Shown: in pieces, positions 49,018 to 56,667 of the stretch
How the letters are laid out: each line of letters opens with the position of its first letter
How positions within the stretch are numbered: the first letter of the stretch is position 1
Sequence record: NC_024146.1
Source: Enterobacteria phage 9g
Reading direction: 5' to 3' (one strand)
DNA: 56,702 nucleotides
Made by a program: the position numbers and the translations under genes
The notes under the pieces: generated by a model
Told to the model about the DNA's origin: nothing
What the model saw: the letters and a program-made list of their open reading frames with translations, nothing else
Databases searched by the model: none

Positions 49018-52000
49018 ATGCCACCAGCAATAATTGGAGCTGTAGTTGCTATCGGTGCAGCGGCTGGGGCAGCGGCAGGTATTCTCCCAGCCACTGCCGC
49101 GCTTGTGATTGGTATTGCTGCCAGTGCCGCTGGAGCTCTACTTACAAAAACTCAGAGCTTTAACTTTGACTCCTATACAGCTCAGAGTGAGCGTAAACAG
49201 GTTATTCGTGCTGCTGCTGCATCCCGGACAGTGATTTATGGGACGACTGTATCTAGTGGTGTACTTGTATTTGCAGAAGAAGAACCGGGAGAACAGGATA
49301 CCAATAAACATGGTGAGAACCATGAAAAGCTGACGTTGGTTCTTGCATTGGCAGGCCATCCGCTGACAGGCGTAGGACAAGTGTGGTTAGGTGATGACGC
49401 TATCGAGACTTTTGGTGATAAAGCGAAGTGTATAATACATAATAATCCTACTACCGTTAGTCAGGATATGTTGAATCGTTGCCCATCGTGGAAAAGGGAC
49501 ATGATTGGTAAAGGTATTTGCTGGATGCAATTAAACCTTGTGTTCGATTCTGAAAAATTCCCGTCTGGTCTACCTAACGTTAAATGCCTTAAGAAAGGTC
49601 GTAAGGTATTAGATCCTAGAACTGGTAATATGGTATTTAGCAATAACGCAGCTTTAGTCATTCTGGATTACTTACGAGTGTACTTAAAACGCTCTGATGA
49701 CGCAATTCTTTGGGACCAGTTCAAAGAAGCTGCTAATATCTGTGATGAAAGTGTAAAGAACGCGGACAACACATACGAACCTCGTTACACCATAAATGGT
49801 GAGTTTGATATTGATGAAGCTCCCTCTAAGATTTTGGAGGATATGCTTGACGCTTGTGGTGGCGAGTTAACTTACATTGGCGGTAAACATGGTATTCTTG
49901 TTGGTGCATATTATGGTCCACCTGAATTAACACTGGATACAAGTTGTATTGCTGGTGACATTAAAATCACACCTGAAACAGCTTTCAAAGAACGCACAAA
50001 TACAATCACTGGTACTTATATAGATCCTCTGCAAAATTATCAGGAAGCTGACTTCCCTCCTGTAAGTGTCGCAGAATGGATACAACAAGACGGCCAAGAG
50101 ATCACACAGGACGTAGACTATCGTTTTGTAACAAGCCCATACCAGGCACAACGTCTGTCTAACTTAACATTGAAACGCAAACGTATTGGCCGTTCCATAG
50201 AGATACCATGTAACATGCGTGGGTATCGTTTCCGTCCAGGTATGTACGTTTACGTTGACATTCCTAACATTGGAATGAACAAAGTAGAGATGCGTGTTAT
50301 TAAGTGGCAGTTTGATCCGAAAGGTGGTGTTACTGTAACTGTACGCCAAGACTTCCCGGCCTTATGGGACGATGCAATTGGCAAACCTGTAGAGCGTCCA
50401 GATTTAGTGGATTTGCCTACTGGTGGCGCTATGCAACCTCAGAATTTGCAGTATGAAGTCTTGCAGATCAGCGACGTTGTACAAGGTGTGCTGTCGTGGC
50501 AAAATATAATGGCTGTAGCCTACAACAACGTAGTAATTAAGAAAGATGGTACTACCGTATTGACGGTGCAAGTACCGGGCCAGAGCACGCGGATTACAGG
50601 GCTTATTCGCGGCGCTTATACAGCACATGTGAAAGCTGTAGCGTATACCGGCGCAACAAGTCCAGAAGCGTATCTTGAATTCAATATTCAAGCACCTTCC
50701 GCTCCTACGTCTGTTGAAGTAACGCAAGGCTACTTCGCAGTGACATTGAAACCAAAATCTGCGGATCTAGCGAACGTTAGTACACAATATGATTTCTGGA
50801 CGTCCGGTGAAACAAGATTACCATCCACTGCTGTAGACGTGGTAGAGAGACAAGCCACTCGTGCTGGTATGGGTACAACGTGGACTTCAGAAGGGTTGCT
50901 CAATGACCACACTTATTACTGGTATGTGCGGGCAATTAATGCTTTTGGTTCTTCTGCATTTGTAGAGGTGGCTGCAAGATGCTTCACAGATGCTGCTGGC
51001 CTTATTCCGCAGATTGACACAGAGTTCAAAGGTACTAACACCTATAAAGAACTTATGGCTGAGATTGGAAGCGTCAGCGATGGTGTCAAGAGTTATGTGG
51101 ACGACCAAATTGAAACCTCTGAAGGGCGCTTAACTCAAACAATAGATACAGTGCAACAATCTGTAGTTCTTGTTGACGGTAAAGTGCAGCAACAAGGCGT
51201 CACAATCAATGAACAGGGGCAGTTAATAGATGCTCAGGGTAAGTTGATTCAAACAAACGGCCAACAGATTAATGTGGTCAAAGCTACCGTACAGGAAGTC
51301 AGTAAGTCCGTTGTAGATCTTGAAGGTAACGTTAACGCTCAGTGGGGCGCCAAGATCCAGGTGGATAATAAAGGCCAAAAATACGTTGCCGGTATTCAGT
51401 TAGGTATGGAAGGTTCCGGTGGAGCTATCCAATCTTACTTTATGGTCAACGCCAACAACTTTGCTATCTATAACCCAACTGACAGTACAGCGGATTTAGC
51501 ATTTGCAGTTAAGAACGGTCAAGTGTTCATGAAGGCAACGTTCATTGAGAACGGGTCTATTGATAACGCTAAGATTGGTAACTATATTCAATCTAACAAC
51601 TATGTAGCTGGTTCCGCAGGTTGGAAGTTGAATAAAGCTGGTGACGCTGAATTCAATAACGTAACTGTCAGAGGTGTGGTATATGCTAGTGGCGGTAGAT
51701 TTACTGGTGAGATACAAGCAACAAGCGGTAAGTTCAAAGGAACTGTAGAAGCGCAAAGTTTTATCGGGGACATTGCAAATATGCACACAGGGACGAATGT
51801 GAGTCGGACTAATGATGGATCTTTAGAAAAGGTAATGACTTATACGGATTCATCCAGTTCTGGGCACGCAAGACACGTCTGTGTTATAGCAAACGTTAAA
51901 GGTAATGGTGCGGGAATAATCAATATCAACGGTAGTGAGAGTGGTTCATCCGTGCAAGACACAGAGAGACTTATCATGCATTCTGCGGTTGTGACAGGAC

Positions 52001-52372: not shown

Positions 52373-52453
52373 TGGGACTCCTTTGTGTTGTTGACAGGGT
52401 TGAATTTCAATATACTTGTTGTGTTGAGTAAGCTAAATAAAGCGAGAAACATT

Positions 52454-55400
52454 ATGGCAATTCGTTTACATGGTATTCTAGTTGATGGATTGAATAAACC
52501 AATCGTCAATGCAAACGTCTTCTTACTTGCACGAAGCAATACTATTGTAGTTCTAGGTGGAAGTAAAGCGGTATTTAAGACTGATTCGCAAGGTGCTTAC
52601 GACGTCACAGTCAACGCCGGGCATTATGTGGTTATCATTGGACCGGAAGGTAAGGAACCGTATAAAGCGGGTGACATTGTAATCTATGCAGATAGCCAGA
52701 ACGGTTCACTTAACGCATATCTTACTAAATGGGCTCCAGAAGAAACTACACCTGAAATACTTCATGAGATAAAGCAACTGGTGGCTAATTCTGAGCAATT
52801 CGCATTGCAGGCGTCTGAATCCGCTGCTAATGCTAAGAAGAGTGAGCTTAACGCGGAGACAAGTAAAAACTCTGCTGCAACGGATGCAGCGTCAGCTCTG
52901 CTATCAAAACAGGAATCTGCCGCTAGTGCGTCTTCCGCATTGCAATCCAAGAACGCTGCGGCTGGTTCTGCTACATCAGCTCAACAATCTCTTACTGCTG
53001 TGCAAGGACTCAAAGTTGAAGTCCAACAATTAAAAACCGACACGCAGCATATTAAAGAAGAGGGCGTCGCTGAAGTAACAGCTCTCAAAAATGCTGCAAC
53101 TACAGCGGCTAACAATGCTAAAGCATCAGAAACTGCATCTGCTAATAATGCGACTTTGGCTGATACTAAAGCAAAGGAAGCGTCTGTAAGTGCAACCACT
53201 GCTGATCAAGCGAAAGTGGCTGCTGAGGCAGCAAAGGACGCATCCGAAGCAAGTGCGGTTGAATCTGCTACTTCTGCTGGTGAATCGCAGACCTCAGCTA
53301 ATGCAGCTAAGGCAAGCGAAACGGTTGCAACACAGAAGGCAGCTTCGGCCTCTACGTCTGAAACTAATGCGGCAGCTTCCGCTCAGACTGCGACTAACAA
53401 AGCTGGTGAGTCTGCCGCTAGTGCTACCGCAGCTAAGGCAAGCGAAACTAATGCTAAGACGTCAGAAACTAATGCTGGTACATCAGCTGGAAGATCTGAG
53501 TCCGCTGCTTTGCGCTCAGAAGCTGCTGCTGAACGTGCGGAAGAGATTGCTGGTGCAATTGGTCTTGAAGATGCGACTTTGACTGTTAAAGGTATCGTTC
53601 GTCTTAGCAATGATACTGACAGCACTGCTGAAGACCTGGCGGCTACACCAAAGGCTGTTAAAACAGTCATGGACGTTGCTAATACTAAAGCTCCGTCAAA
53701 TAGTCCTGTTCTAACTGGTGTACCAACGGCACCAACTCCAGCACCTGAAGTTAATAACAATCAGATTGCTACAACTCAGTTTGTACACCAAATTATAAGC
53801 GCACTTATTGGTGATGCACCAGACGCGTTAAACACTCTGAAAGAGTTAGCTGACGCTCTTGGTGATGATCCGAACTTTGCTACAACGATGACCACACTTA
53901 TTAACAGTAAGTTGGCCAAAGATCAGAACGGTGCTGACATTCCTAATAAGCAACTGTTTATTGATAACGTTGGTTTACGTGAGACTGTTAACTTAGCTCT
54001 CGGTGCATTGCAGAAGAATCAGAACGGTGCGGATATACCGGATAAAGGCGTCTTCCTTAATAACATCAATGCTGCCAGCAAGACGGATATGGCCGCTAAA
54101 CGTGGAATGAAGTTTTCGCGTGTAGATGCACCAGCGGGAGTTGAAGCAGACAAGTTTTATCCTGTGGTCATTCGTCGTTGTTCTGGATTCAACAGTGAAT
54201 TAGCATCAAGGGTAACGATAAGTACAGATTCAAGAATGTCAAGCCATAGGATGAACAACTGTGATTTCAATGGTTTTGTGATGCCTGGTGGATGGACCGA
54301 CCGCGGACGATATGCTTATGGAATGTTCCACGCATATACTGCAAATGAGCGTGCTATTCATTCTATTATGATGGGTGACTCGGATGATGATCTGTGCTCT
54401 GTGTTCTATGTTGAAGGTGAAGCGTTCCCTATCTCTGTATATGTAGAAGAAGGCTTATTTGTTGTTGTACCGTCCGCCGACTATGTTGTCGGACAAACGA
54501 CTTACAAATGGGGTGCTACAGACCCTAGAACAGAATGTGTGGCCGCTAAAACTATACTTGATTTCTGCAATGGTAGAGGATTCTATAGTTCGCACGCACT
54601 CCTCACAAATGCAGATATTAGCGGTGCGAAAATCTACGCCAACGGTGAAATCGTAGCTCGCGGTGAGAATCAAGTTCGTATGATTGGTGGGGACTACGGT
54701 GCATTATGGCGCAATGACGGTGCCATGACCTATCTCTTATTTACCGCTAAAGGTGATCAATACGGTGGTTGGAACGATTTAAGACCATTTATGATTGATA
54801 ACGCTACTGGTGAGTTTACCATCGGCACTAAATTGAACGCCAATCAAGGTGTGAATGGTAATGCGTCAAGTGCTACGAAGTTACAAACAGCGCGTAAAAT
54901 TGGTGGCGCCTCATTCGATGGTACTGCTGACGTCAATCTTCCAGGTGTTAACATTCAGGGTAATCAGAACACAACTGGTAACGCGGCAACTGCCACCAAA
55001 CTACAGACAGCAATAAAAATATCTGGTGTTTCGTTTGATGGTTCTACTGATATCACTTTAACCGCCGGGCATGTAGATGCTTTTGCCAGAAGGGCAACGG
55101 GTACATATTCCGATGCGGATGGTGGCGTTCCCTGGAATTCCGAATCAGGCGCTTACAATGTCACCCGCTCTGCCGACAGCTATATATTGGTTAACTTCTA
55201 TATCGGAGTCGGAAGTTGCCGGACCCTGCAGATGAAGGCGCATCACAGAAATGGAGGTCTGTTCTACCGTTCCTCAAGAGATGGCTACGGTTTCGAAGAA
55301 GATTGGGACCAAATTTACACTAAAAAGAATCCACCTCCGGCTGGTGAAAGTTTACCTGTAGGTGTTCCATTACCGTGGCCTACGGATACACCTCCGTCCG

Positions 55401-56089
55401 GTTATATTGTAATGCAGGGTCAATCCTTCGATAAAGCTGCATACCCGAAACTGGCGGCTGCATACCCAACGGGCGTGCTTCCAGACATGCGTGGTCAAAC
55501 TATCAAAGGTAAACCAGCAAGCGGTCGCGACGTACTTTCTACGGAAGATGACGGTGTGAAGTCACATACTCACACTGCGTCTACTGCATCTGTCGATCTT
55601 GGAAGCAAGACAACTTCCAGCTTTGACTATGGTACTAAGACAAGTTCGAGTTTTGACTATGGCACCAAATCTGCTGCTTCAGCTGGTGCGCATACGCATA
55701 GTCTGAGCGGTTCAACAGGCTCAGCTGGTGCTCATGCCCACACAGGTGGTTTAAGGATGAACAGTGGTGGTTGGGACCAATACGGATCAATAACCGTTCC
55801 GGCAAGTGTATCCACGGTTAAAGGAACCAACCAGCAGGGAGCTGGTTATTGTGCGAAAACAGACAGTCAGGGCAACCACACTCACTCTTTATCTGGTACT
55901 GCTGCTTCGGCTGGAGCTCATACACATAACGTGGCCGTTGGTGCTCATACGCATACTGTAGGTATTGGTGCTCATACCCATACAGTCGCTTTAGGTTCAC
56001 ATAGCCACGGTGTTACAGTTAACGCAACTGGTAACACGGAGAACACCGTTAAGAACGTTGCATTCAACTATATTGTGAGGGCTGCTTAA
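52454..56089 (+). CDS. Side/long tail fibre protein with C-terminal His-rich HxH repeats
   Basis: First ATG at 52454 (GTG at 52385 possible). Ala/Ser-rich helical repeat region; C-terminal [53 protein letters not shown] repeats; a Tfa-like gene follows. Confidence 0.85.
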
Positions 56090-56667
56090 TGTCTTTTGAA
56101 ATGAGTAATGAAGACCAGACTGTAACCGTGTATGACTACTCCAGGGATACGGGCGAATATGTGGGAACCCGTGAGGCGTATGTGGTAGCCAACACAGGTC
56201 TTCCAGCATGTTGTACTGATATGGAGCCTCCAGTGGCTCCAGAAAATCATGTGGCAATTTTTAAAATAGACAGCCAAGTATGGATTTTACGTGAGGACCA
56301 TCGAGGGAAAGTTGTATACGATAAAAATACAGGACTTCCTTTAGTGATAACCACTATTGGATCTCTCCCGGATAATGTGACCTTTATCGCTCCCAACGGC
56401 GAGTATATGAAGTGGAACGGTAATATGTGGGTGAACGATCCGGATGCACAACGTGCTAAGTCGGTTGCGGATGCAACACAACACAAAACAGATCTTCTTA
56501 ATTTAGCAGATTATAAAATCAGTATTCTACAAGATGCTGTGACTTATAATCTAGCTACTGACGAAGAAAGTTCGATGCTGGAATCGTGGAGAAAGTTTCG
56601 TGTACTTGTGAACCGCGTAAACGAAAACGATCCACAGAATATTATCTGGCCTGAGACTCCAGAATAA
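56089..56667 (+). CDS. Tail fibre assembly protein (Tfa-like chaperone)
   Basis: 192 aa immediately after the tail fibre gene, start overlapping its stop (TAATG); typical Tfa size and position. Confidence 0.65.
   Translation: MSFEMSNEDQTVTVYDYSRDTGEYVGTREAYVVANTGLPACCTDMEPPVAPENHVAIFKIDSQVWILREDHRGKVVYDKNTGLPLVITTIGSLPDNVTFIAPNGEYMKWNGNMWVNDPDAQRAKSVADATQHKTDLLNLADYKISILQDAVTYNLATDEESSMLESWRKFRVLVNRVNENDPQNIIWPETPE

Follow-up and report, generated by a model that had tools for sequence, protein, structure and literature searches.

What is the low-complexity stretch, rich in alanine, serine and threonine, that occupies positions 52790-53560 in the genome of Enterobacteria phage 9g (NC_024146.1)? 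The window, by which we mean the whole stretch of DNA that was analysed, comprises 56,702 nucleotides (nt), and the flagged stretch lies in frame within a gene for an stf-type side tail fibre, where it encodes amino acids (aa) 113-369. From the sequence alone it had been read as a quasi-repetitive helical region in the shaft of the fibre, and this reading was upheld by our analysis: the stretch is situated between a PF08400 collar and a PF03406 hinge repeat, it shows heptad periodicity, AlphaFold2 predicts helix over it, and it is the counterpart of a coiled coil that has been demonstrated experimentally in homologues (PMC3368898, PMC12617516). We conclude that it is very probably the proximal Ala/Ser coiled-coil shaft of a lambda-Stf-type side tail fibre. 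The feature is real but ordinary, being of a domain type already described as PCoil or as the proximal coiled-coil domain of Stf-type fibres. The direct basis for this conclusion consists of the composition, the heptad periodicity, the conservation of positions a and d, the predicted helicity, the position between flanking domains and the heptad-quantised lengths of the coil, while a trimeric state and a rod shape are attributed to the 9g coil by analogy with the homologues described in the literature.

Heptad periodicity and predicted structure of the fibre shaft

The fibre protein belonged to phrog_295, tail fibre, in the PHROGs database (E=3e-215). The Pfam search matched PF08400 (phage_tail_N) at aa 1-131 (E=4e-22) and PF03406 (Phage_fiber_2) at aa 375-415 (E=2e-16), and further downstream Gp34_trimer (aa 667-781) and Collar (aa 970-1017), the last two under PF21446 and PF07484; no Pfam model matched aa 132-374, either with the full protein or with the region alone as query. 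On the N-terminal side of the stretch, aa 1-91 matched the collar of Ur-lambda Stf (PDB 9e7m_Ta/9mgh, E=3.5e-13), and AlphaFold2 confidently placed beta strands at aa 2-77, with a predicted local distance difference test score (pLDDT) of ~80. The hinge region on the C-terminal side was 59-64% identical to lambda-like and P2-like fibres and matched the Mu gpS structures 5yvq and 8ju3; its counterpart in lambda Stf is the hinge at aa 394-422 (PMC12617516). The start of the gene was set at the ATG at 52454, and the equivalent ATG is annotated in 4 of 4 close relatives (JenK1, HdK1, HdSG1 and PD328). The GTG at 52385, given as the start in the mechanically produced list of open reading frames (ORFs), was rejected because it overlaps the ribosome-binding site and the start of the divergent lipoprotein gene.

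The composition of aa 113-369 departs strongly from that of the rest of the protein. Ala, Ser and Thr together make up 56% of the residues (Ala 30%, Ser 15%, Thr 11%), compared with 28% elsewhere, and the large hydrophobic and aromatic residues LIVMFYW account for 9%, compared with 27% elsewhere; Pro, Cys, Trp, Tyr and Met are entirely missing, and only 8 of the 257 residues are Gly. Self-comparison of the protein by BLOSUM autocorrelation gave signals at lag 7 (z=6.1) and lag 14 (z=4.9), and lags 28, 35, 42 and 49 were raised too; the cut for significance was 3.8 (99th percentile of the highest z among 60 lags; 1000 composition-preserving shuffles). The internal periodicity anticipated by the sequence-only reading was thus present. 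In the Fourier spectrum of Ala occupancy, period 3.5 alone stood out (power 10.2, against <=3.3 at other periods). The motif that had been proposed, (S/T)E(S/T)AA(N/K)A, describes the stretch only loosely, as [ST]E[ST] occurs 7 times and SESAANA once; the true repeat unit is A-x-x-S-A-x-x. With so few glycines and no period-3 signal, aa 113-369 are not a collagen-like repeat of Gly-X-Y triplets.

At the DNA level only a weak period of 21 nt was found (z=3.9 at lag 21 against codon shuffles, for which the 99th percentile of the maximum was 3.56). A minisatellite-like tandem array was considered as a candidate and rejected: Tandem Repeats Finder (TRF) reported only 2.1 copies of a 21-bp unit, and a seed-based search likewise revealed no array. 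As neither search found a real tandem array, the periodicity sits at the protein level, in the heptad, and not in a DNA repeat array.

The heptads of the coil could be laid out in two blocks separated by a short irregularity (Table 1). The same motif was found in both blocks, and across aa 200-214 the column composition in a fixed frame flips from A..SA.. to SA..A.., which corresponds to a register shift of +4. Fourier phase tracking at period 3.5 was too insensitive to register this shift, and fixed-frame column counts were used in its place. Fibres of other Queuovirinae align collinearly with block 1 (44-48% identity, z=19-27 relative to shuffles). The last three heptads of this block have a core of Val, Leu and Ile, so that the run rich in Ala, Ser and Thr is not uniform at aa ~180-214; apart from these three heptads (aa 183-200), a canonical Leu/Ile/Val core at positions a and d was absent from the coil, and the core consisted of Ala and Ser. 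In block 2, position a is Ala or Ser in 22 of 23 heptads and position d is Ser or Ala in 18 of 22; among lambda-like homologues, the invariant columns of this block fall on a, d and e. The C-terminal end of the coil is formed by a conserved ...RAEEIA... cap, followed by the hinge motif KGIVRLS. Across lambda-like and Queuovirinae fibres, the invariant or nearly invariant columns of the coil are almost all Ala or Ser and are spaced by seven residues (for example A134, A141, A148, A162, A169 and A176, and S137, S158, S165 and S172).

The segment at aa 200-214 is kept in ESCO3-type fibres. A MAFFT alignment had suggested an 11-residue insertion at aa 200-210 relative to these fibres, and this candidate was rejected as a low-complexity artefact, since segment-wise local alignment showed aa 200-214 to be collinear. 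The +4 shift is read from the fibre sequence itself, and no insertion relative to Queuovirinae is claimed.

The length of the coil also follows the heptad among homologues. In 84 of them, the distance between an anchor in the N-domain and the LED motif fell into nine classes (143, 156, 177, 212, 240, 247, 254, 272 and 359), 7 of which are congruent modulo 7. Six of the eight classes other than the mode (254) differ from it by multiples of seven (-98, -77, -42, -14, -7 and +105), for which the binomial chance, calculated with phylogeny ignored, is roughly 2e-4. With +18 relative to the mode, the 9g fibre coil is itself an exception to this rule.

AlphaFold2, run as a monomer on an alignment of 13 sequences and evaluated with DSSP, assigned helices to aa 100-200, 207-270 and 280-368. 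Several points weigh against the identification as a coiled-coil rod. The confidence of the model over the coil was only pLDDT 55-69, falling below 50 at aa 199-209, and the monomer helix is broken at aa 201-206 and 271-279; given these breaks and the low confidence, a continuous rod is not demonstrated for the 9g fibre. The similarity of aa 215-290 to any homologue was barely above that expected from composition (z=0.6-5.5 over shuffles), so that the homology of this part rests on its position between homologous flanks. A core of Ala and Ser is also atypical for stable trimers. A sequence search of the PDB with the coil alone returned only a chance match (E=0.15) and no solved homologous coil, and the lambda coil model itself consists of density from cryo-electron tomography (cryo-ET) combined with AlphaFold3, without an atomic structure (PMC12617516).

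These points bear on two other explanations of the stretch. If it were an intrinsically disordered, flexible low-complexity linker and not a folded rod, then its composition, the lack of a Pfam model over it, the modest AlphaFold2 confidence and the fast divergence of the sequence would all be accounted for. However, this explanation is very improbable in our view, because the seven-residue periodicity is strict, with Ala at a and Ser at d kept across distant homologues, Pro is missing and Gly rare, AlphaFold2 gives helix and not random coil, and length changes come in heptads; moreover, its homologue PCoil forms an alpha-helical trimer in vitro (PMC3368898), and a rod is seen in cryo-ET (PMC12617516). 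The helices might instead fold back into a compact bundle, as they do at the two breaks in the AlphaFold2 monomer, and AlphaFold3 likewise folds up full-length lambda Stf (PMC12617516). Such folding is a common artefact when homotrimeric coils are modelled as monomers, the authors of the Ur-lambda study called the folded prediction inconsistent with their cryo-ET, in which the proximal domain is extended (PMC12617516), and the tail length of PfN-PCoil in electron micrographs fits an extended coil (PMC3368898); we consider a bundle in place of an extended rod hardly credible.

Under the reading as a coiled-coil shaft, the three N-terminal collar domains would anchor three chains to the tail, the short linker would gather them, and the helix of ~269 residues (aa 100-368) may then zip them in register into a thin rod. 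From 269 residues at ~0.15 nm each we infer that this rod would be ~40 nm long. It would end at the conserved cap and the Phage_fiber_2 hinge, beyond which would come the distal fibre, of beta structure, and a receptor-binding tip resembling T4 gp37. The role that we infer for the rod is that of a spacer and trimerisation register, which would set the reach of the tip from the tail. If the heptad pattern alone is constrained, the sequence could drift fast and the length could change by whole heptads.

Extra reading frames and the question of recombination

Across the region run five further ORFs, 62-130 aa in length and distributed over both strands (Table 1), of which the sequence-only reading had regarded the long ones as spurious products of the repeats. 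Our results agree with this. Frame +2 and one of the antisense frames contained 1.2 stop codons per 100 codons, compared with 3.6-5.4 elsewhere in the gene, and the depletion arises because a stop can form there only over a hydrophobic, Tyr, His or Gln codon, of which the region has few; in the frame of the 125-aa antisense ORF, in particular, stops require sense Tyr, His or Gln codons. The comparisons with the four relatives gave 31-41 substitutions in the region, 21-31 of them at third positions of stf codons, illustrating that purifying selection acts in the stf frame.

A real overlapping gene, either the 130-aa ORF in frame +2 or the 125-aa antisense ORF, would explain why frames of 125-130 aa, long for chance, stay open, and the antisense ORFs do indeed remain open in each of the four relatives, with synonymous changes outnumbering nonsynonymous ones. 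That excess is automatic, since the wobble position of the antisense frame is also that of stf, and synonymous and nonsynonymous counts are thus uninformative for the antisense ORFs. The 130-aa ORF is interrupted by one internal stop in 4 of 4 relatives, and its changes are mostly nonsynonymous (18-24, against 2-5 synonymous). The missing Tyr, His and hydrophobic codons suffice for the depletion of stops, the starts are GTG or TTG, and the products are of low complexity and match no family: a Pfam search with three of the alternative-frame ORFs and with the region alone gave no match other than one weak chance match to Jiraiya (E=0.1). We consider an overlapping gene extremely improbable. The alternative-frame ORFs are by-products of the use of GCN, TCN, ACN, GAA and AAR codons.

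It had also been proposed that the stretch is a likely site for recombination with other fibre genes, and for this we found no support among close relatives. In JenK1, HdK1, HdSG1 and PD328, whose stf genes share gene position and start codon with that of 9g, the flagged region is 94.7-96.0% identical at the DNA level over its full length, without an indel, and it is collinear and 90-100% identical per 60-nt window, like the N-domain. In all four relatives, identity within stf collapses at aa ~860-968 and again at ~1070-1140, and in HdSG1 alone it does so at aa ~540-800 too. The variation in host range appears from sequence to lie in these distal segments and not in the coil. Upstream, 9g differs from JenK1 and ESCO3 from 51658-51778, at the C-terminus of J, to ~52454, and the match to JenK1 is restored from the start codon of stf. 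In the metagenomic Queuovirinae contig L005, a switch from the type seen in the window to the ESCO3 type falls at ~52600-52650, i.e. at aa ~50-65 of the N-domain. No junction was located inside the coil in the four relatives and this contig. The alignment with related fibres that had been suggested as a check thus brought out no mosaic boundary in the coil, and only over deep time is there anything in favour of the proposal, namely the heptad differences in length, the swapping of distal modules at the C-terminal end of the coil in the wider family, and a switch in the family of the flanks.

This switch is visible at two levels. In the DNA, the similarity to other Queuovirinae reaches as far as ~52743-52812, where the coil begins, and similarity to lambda-like prophages (Gifsy-1/2, Fels-1) sets in at ~53517, where it ends. 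In the protein, aa 1-214 are of the Queuovirinae type, with identity falling from 70% to 45%, and aa 370-490 are of the lambda/P2 type (59-64%) and absent from ESCO3-type fibres, in which other distal domains attach right after a shorter coil. We also observed that a patch of 57-70 nt at 53419-53488 is 79-84% identical to the L-shaped or long tail fibre genes of T5-like phages (Bf23, slur09, ESCO30 and Salmonella Kenya phages), which indicates that the same Ala/Ser heptad motif occurs in fibres of unrelated siphophages.

A recombination hotspot, in which the shared quasi-repeats serve as patches of homology for swaps of distal receptor-binding modules or for unequal crossing-over that changes the length, would accommodate the heptad-quantised length classes (also noted in PMC3368898), the change of partner in DNA similarity across the coil, the different families of its protein flanks and the short patches in common with T5-like fibre genes. 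Against this, the four close relatives have neither breakpoint nor indel in the region, theirs lying at aa ~540 and in the two more distal segments, the 5' junctions fall at the J C-terminus, at the stf start and within the N-domain, and the longest exact internal repeat is merely 20 nt. The loss of DNA similarity over the coil fits fast drift under constraint on the heptad pattern alone equally well, and lengths in multiples of seven may come from selection on register and not from the mechanism of exchange. We consider a hotspot possible but unlikely. More specifically, the Ala/Ser rod might be the evolutionary joint of the fibre, where exchange in register, inside heptads of low information content, linked a Queuovirinae attachment module (aa 1-214) to a hinge and distal module of lambda/P2 type (from aa 370) and by the same route gave rise to the heptad-quantised lengths. 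This scenario is improbable on present data; if it were true, the coil would be a preferred, register-preserving recombination substrate for host-range modules.

The distal fibre and the neighbouring genes

The phage is a Nonagvirus (Queuovirinae), and its structural region is 93-96% identical at the DNA level to HdSG1, HdK1, ESCO3, PD328 and JenK1. The stf gene is preceded by genes for a gpJ-like tip protein and a small lipoprotein and followed by a tail fibre assembly gene. The features of the locus are collected in Table 1.

Table 1. Features of the stf locus of phage 9g, given as positions in the window or, where so marked, as residues of the fibre protein
Feature	Position	Strand	Basis or remark
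stf-type side (lateral) tail fibre gene, 1211 aa	52454..56089	+	ORF list, Pfam, PHROGs, relatives' annotation
N-terminal collar domain (StfN, aa 1-~91) and short linker (aa ~92-99)	52454..52750	+	PF08400, PDB match, AlphaFold2
Whole predicted alpha-helical coiled-coil rod, aa 100-368, encompassing the flagged stretch	52751..53557	+	AlphaFold2 helices, heptad periodicity
Coil block 1, aa 106-203; a = 106+7k reads ISAAAAASAAAVVT, d reads LFSSSDSSSSSLLI	52769..53062	+	heptad layout
Irregularity, aa 200-214	53051..53095	+	+4 register shift between blocks; AlphaFold2 helix break aa 201-206
Coil block 2, aa 215-369; a = 215+7k reads AASAAAASSSAAAAASAAASSAI, d reads ASNKSAASSSSKSSKSSSSAAI	53096..53560	+	heptad layout
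Longest exact internal direct repeat, 20 nt, GCAGCTAAGGCAAGCGAAAC	53303 and 53429 (53303..53448)	+	spacing 126 nt = 6 heptads
Only tandem DNA repeat in the region, 21-bp unit, 2.1 copies	53432..53476	+	TRF score 55
Hinge region with Phage_fiber_2 repeat (aa 375-415), directly 3' of the coil	53576..53698	+	PF03406
Mu gpS-like repeats	aa 484-541	+	distal fibre module
T4 gp34 trimerisation domain	aa 667-781	+	distal fibre module
Mu S-like segment	aa 871-965	+	distal fibre module
T4 gp37 needle/tip	aa 965-1211	+	2xgf, E=2e-66
Antisense ORF, 62 aa	52762..52950	-	ORF list
ORF in frame +2, 67 aa	52830..53033	+	ORF list
Antisense ORF, 72 aa	52981..53199	-	ORF list
Spurious ORF in frame +2, 130 aa, Leu/Arg/Gln-rich	53190..53582	+	ORF list
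Spurious antisense ORF, 125 aa	53383..53760	-	ORF list
Divergent lipoprotein gene, 77 aa	52139-52372	-	phrog_12984

The distal fibre (54013-56089, aa ~520-1211) is a mosaic of known modules. At 55671-56003 it contains an array with a period of 27 nt that encodes GAHTH-type His-x-His repeats (TRF 55912-55982, 2.6 copies); in the gp37-like tip, this array corresponds to the needle rich in His. Also inside stf, 17 nt (AGCGGGTGACATTGTAA) form a perfect inverted repeat, with arms at 52666-52682 and 55153-55169, 2.47 kb apart. Its right arm, which none of the relatives has, lies in a segment unique to 9g, and the two arms match over no more than 17 nt; the repeat is probably due to chance, and no invertase context was seen.

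Upstream of stf, the segment 51658-52453, made up of the last ~150 codons of the gpJ-like gene together with the divergent lipoprotein gene, is unlike the corresponding segments of JenK1, HdK1 and ESCO3, whereas the rest of the genome is ~95% identical. It matches Seuratvirus phages (CAjan, Seurat and GottfriedDienst) at 76-78% and, judged from its sequence, looks like a swapped module for receptor-binding protein and superinfection exclusion, with putative junctions at ~51660-51780 and at the stf start. Downstream, the tail fibre assembly gene (Caudo_TAP, 192 aa, 56089-56667) is intact here and in PD328; the annotations of JenK1 and HdSG1 give it in two pieces or with a putative frameshift.

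Comparison with known fibre coils

Little about the stretch is new, as published Nonagvirus genomes contain the same segment at ~95% identity, a biochemical description of the domain type dates from 2012, and its place in the lambda virion was established in 2025. The missing atomic structure of such coils and their unusual Ala/Ser core leave only a mildly open point. For annotation, the result has the value that a low-complexity stretch without a Pfam model is recognised as a genuine structural domain, and it points to a hazard, since the stretch gives rise to deceptive ORFs on either strand and can cause sequence to be masked as low-complexity. When fibres are engineered, the natural module borders are the ends of the coil at aa ~100 and ~369, and the length is best altered by whole heptads.

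T4 fibritin, one of the canonical trimeric coiled coils of phage fibres, is likewise a parallel helical rod built on heptads that serves as a trimerising shaft. In contrast to such canonical coils, the core of the 9g coil is formed by Ala and Ser and not by Leu, Ile and Val, and this is why it looks like low complexity and escapes the Pfam models.

The closest description of the domain type is that of Ghosh et al. 2012, who gave the name PCoil to the low-complexity region following PfN in the fibre proteins of O157 prophages (PMC3368898). PCoil consists of Ala-x-x-Ala/Ser-x-x-Ser heptads with few Leu or Ile, and its lengths differ by multiples of 7; PfN-PCoil was shown to be a trimer by analytical ultracentrifugation and alpha-helical by circular dichroism, with reversible melting near 50 C, and it appeared as a rod in rotary-shadowing electron microscopy (PMC3368898). 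Like the PCoil of EPclA and EPclB from E. coli O157:H7 prophages, the 9g coil directly follows PF08400 (PfN), is rich in Ala and Ser and is nearly free of Leu and Ile, and in both families the heptad is the loose Ala-x-x-Ala/Ser-x-x-Ser, lengths come in multiples of seven and a helical trimer is predicted (measured for EPclA). However, the 9g coil is longer than that of EPclA (~269 vs ~110 residues), it has a stretch with a Val/Leu/Ile core and a +4 register shift at aa ~180-214, and it leads into the Phage_fiber_2 hinge and a distal fibre of gp34, Mu-S and gp37 type, whereas collagen repeats follow in EPclA and EPclB.

In Ur-lambda Stf, Yu et al. 2025 distinguished a collar (1-91), a linker (92-101), a proximal coiled coil (102-393), a hinge (394-422) and a distal fibre after 422, the proximal coil being assigned from cryo-electron microscopy, cryo-ET and AlphaFold3 (PMC12617516). 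Both fibres share one architecture, made of a collar, a linker of ~10 residues, a long coil, a hinge with the LEDA..KGIVQLS motif and a distal fibre with a gp37-like tip, and the alignment of lambda-like homologues with the 9g fibre is collinear over aa 1-490/540, with ~41% of residues identical. Between the N-domains of 9g and Ur-lambda Stf the identity is only ~40%, the two coils are alike mainly in pattern, and the 9g coil is 18 residues longer than the mode of the lambda-like class. Unlike Ur-lambda, 9g is a lytic Nonagvirus and not a lambdoid phage, and its distal fibre has an extra Gp34_trimer domain and a Mu-S-like segment. From its own Nonagvirus relatives, the 9g fibre differs in the distal segments described above, and 9g differs from them also in the module formed by the J C-terminus and the lipoprotein gene upstream.

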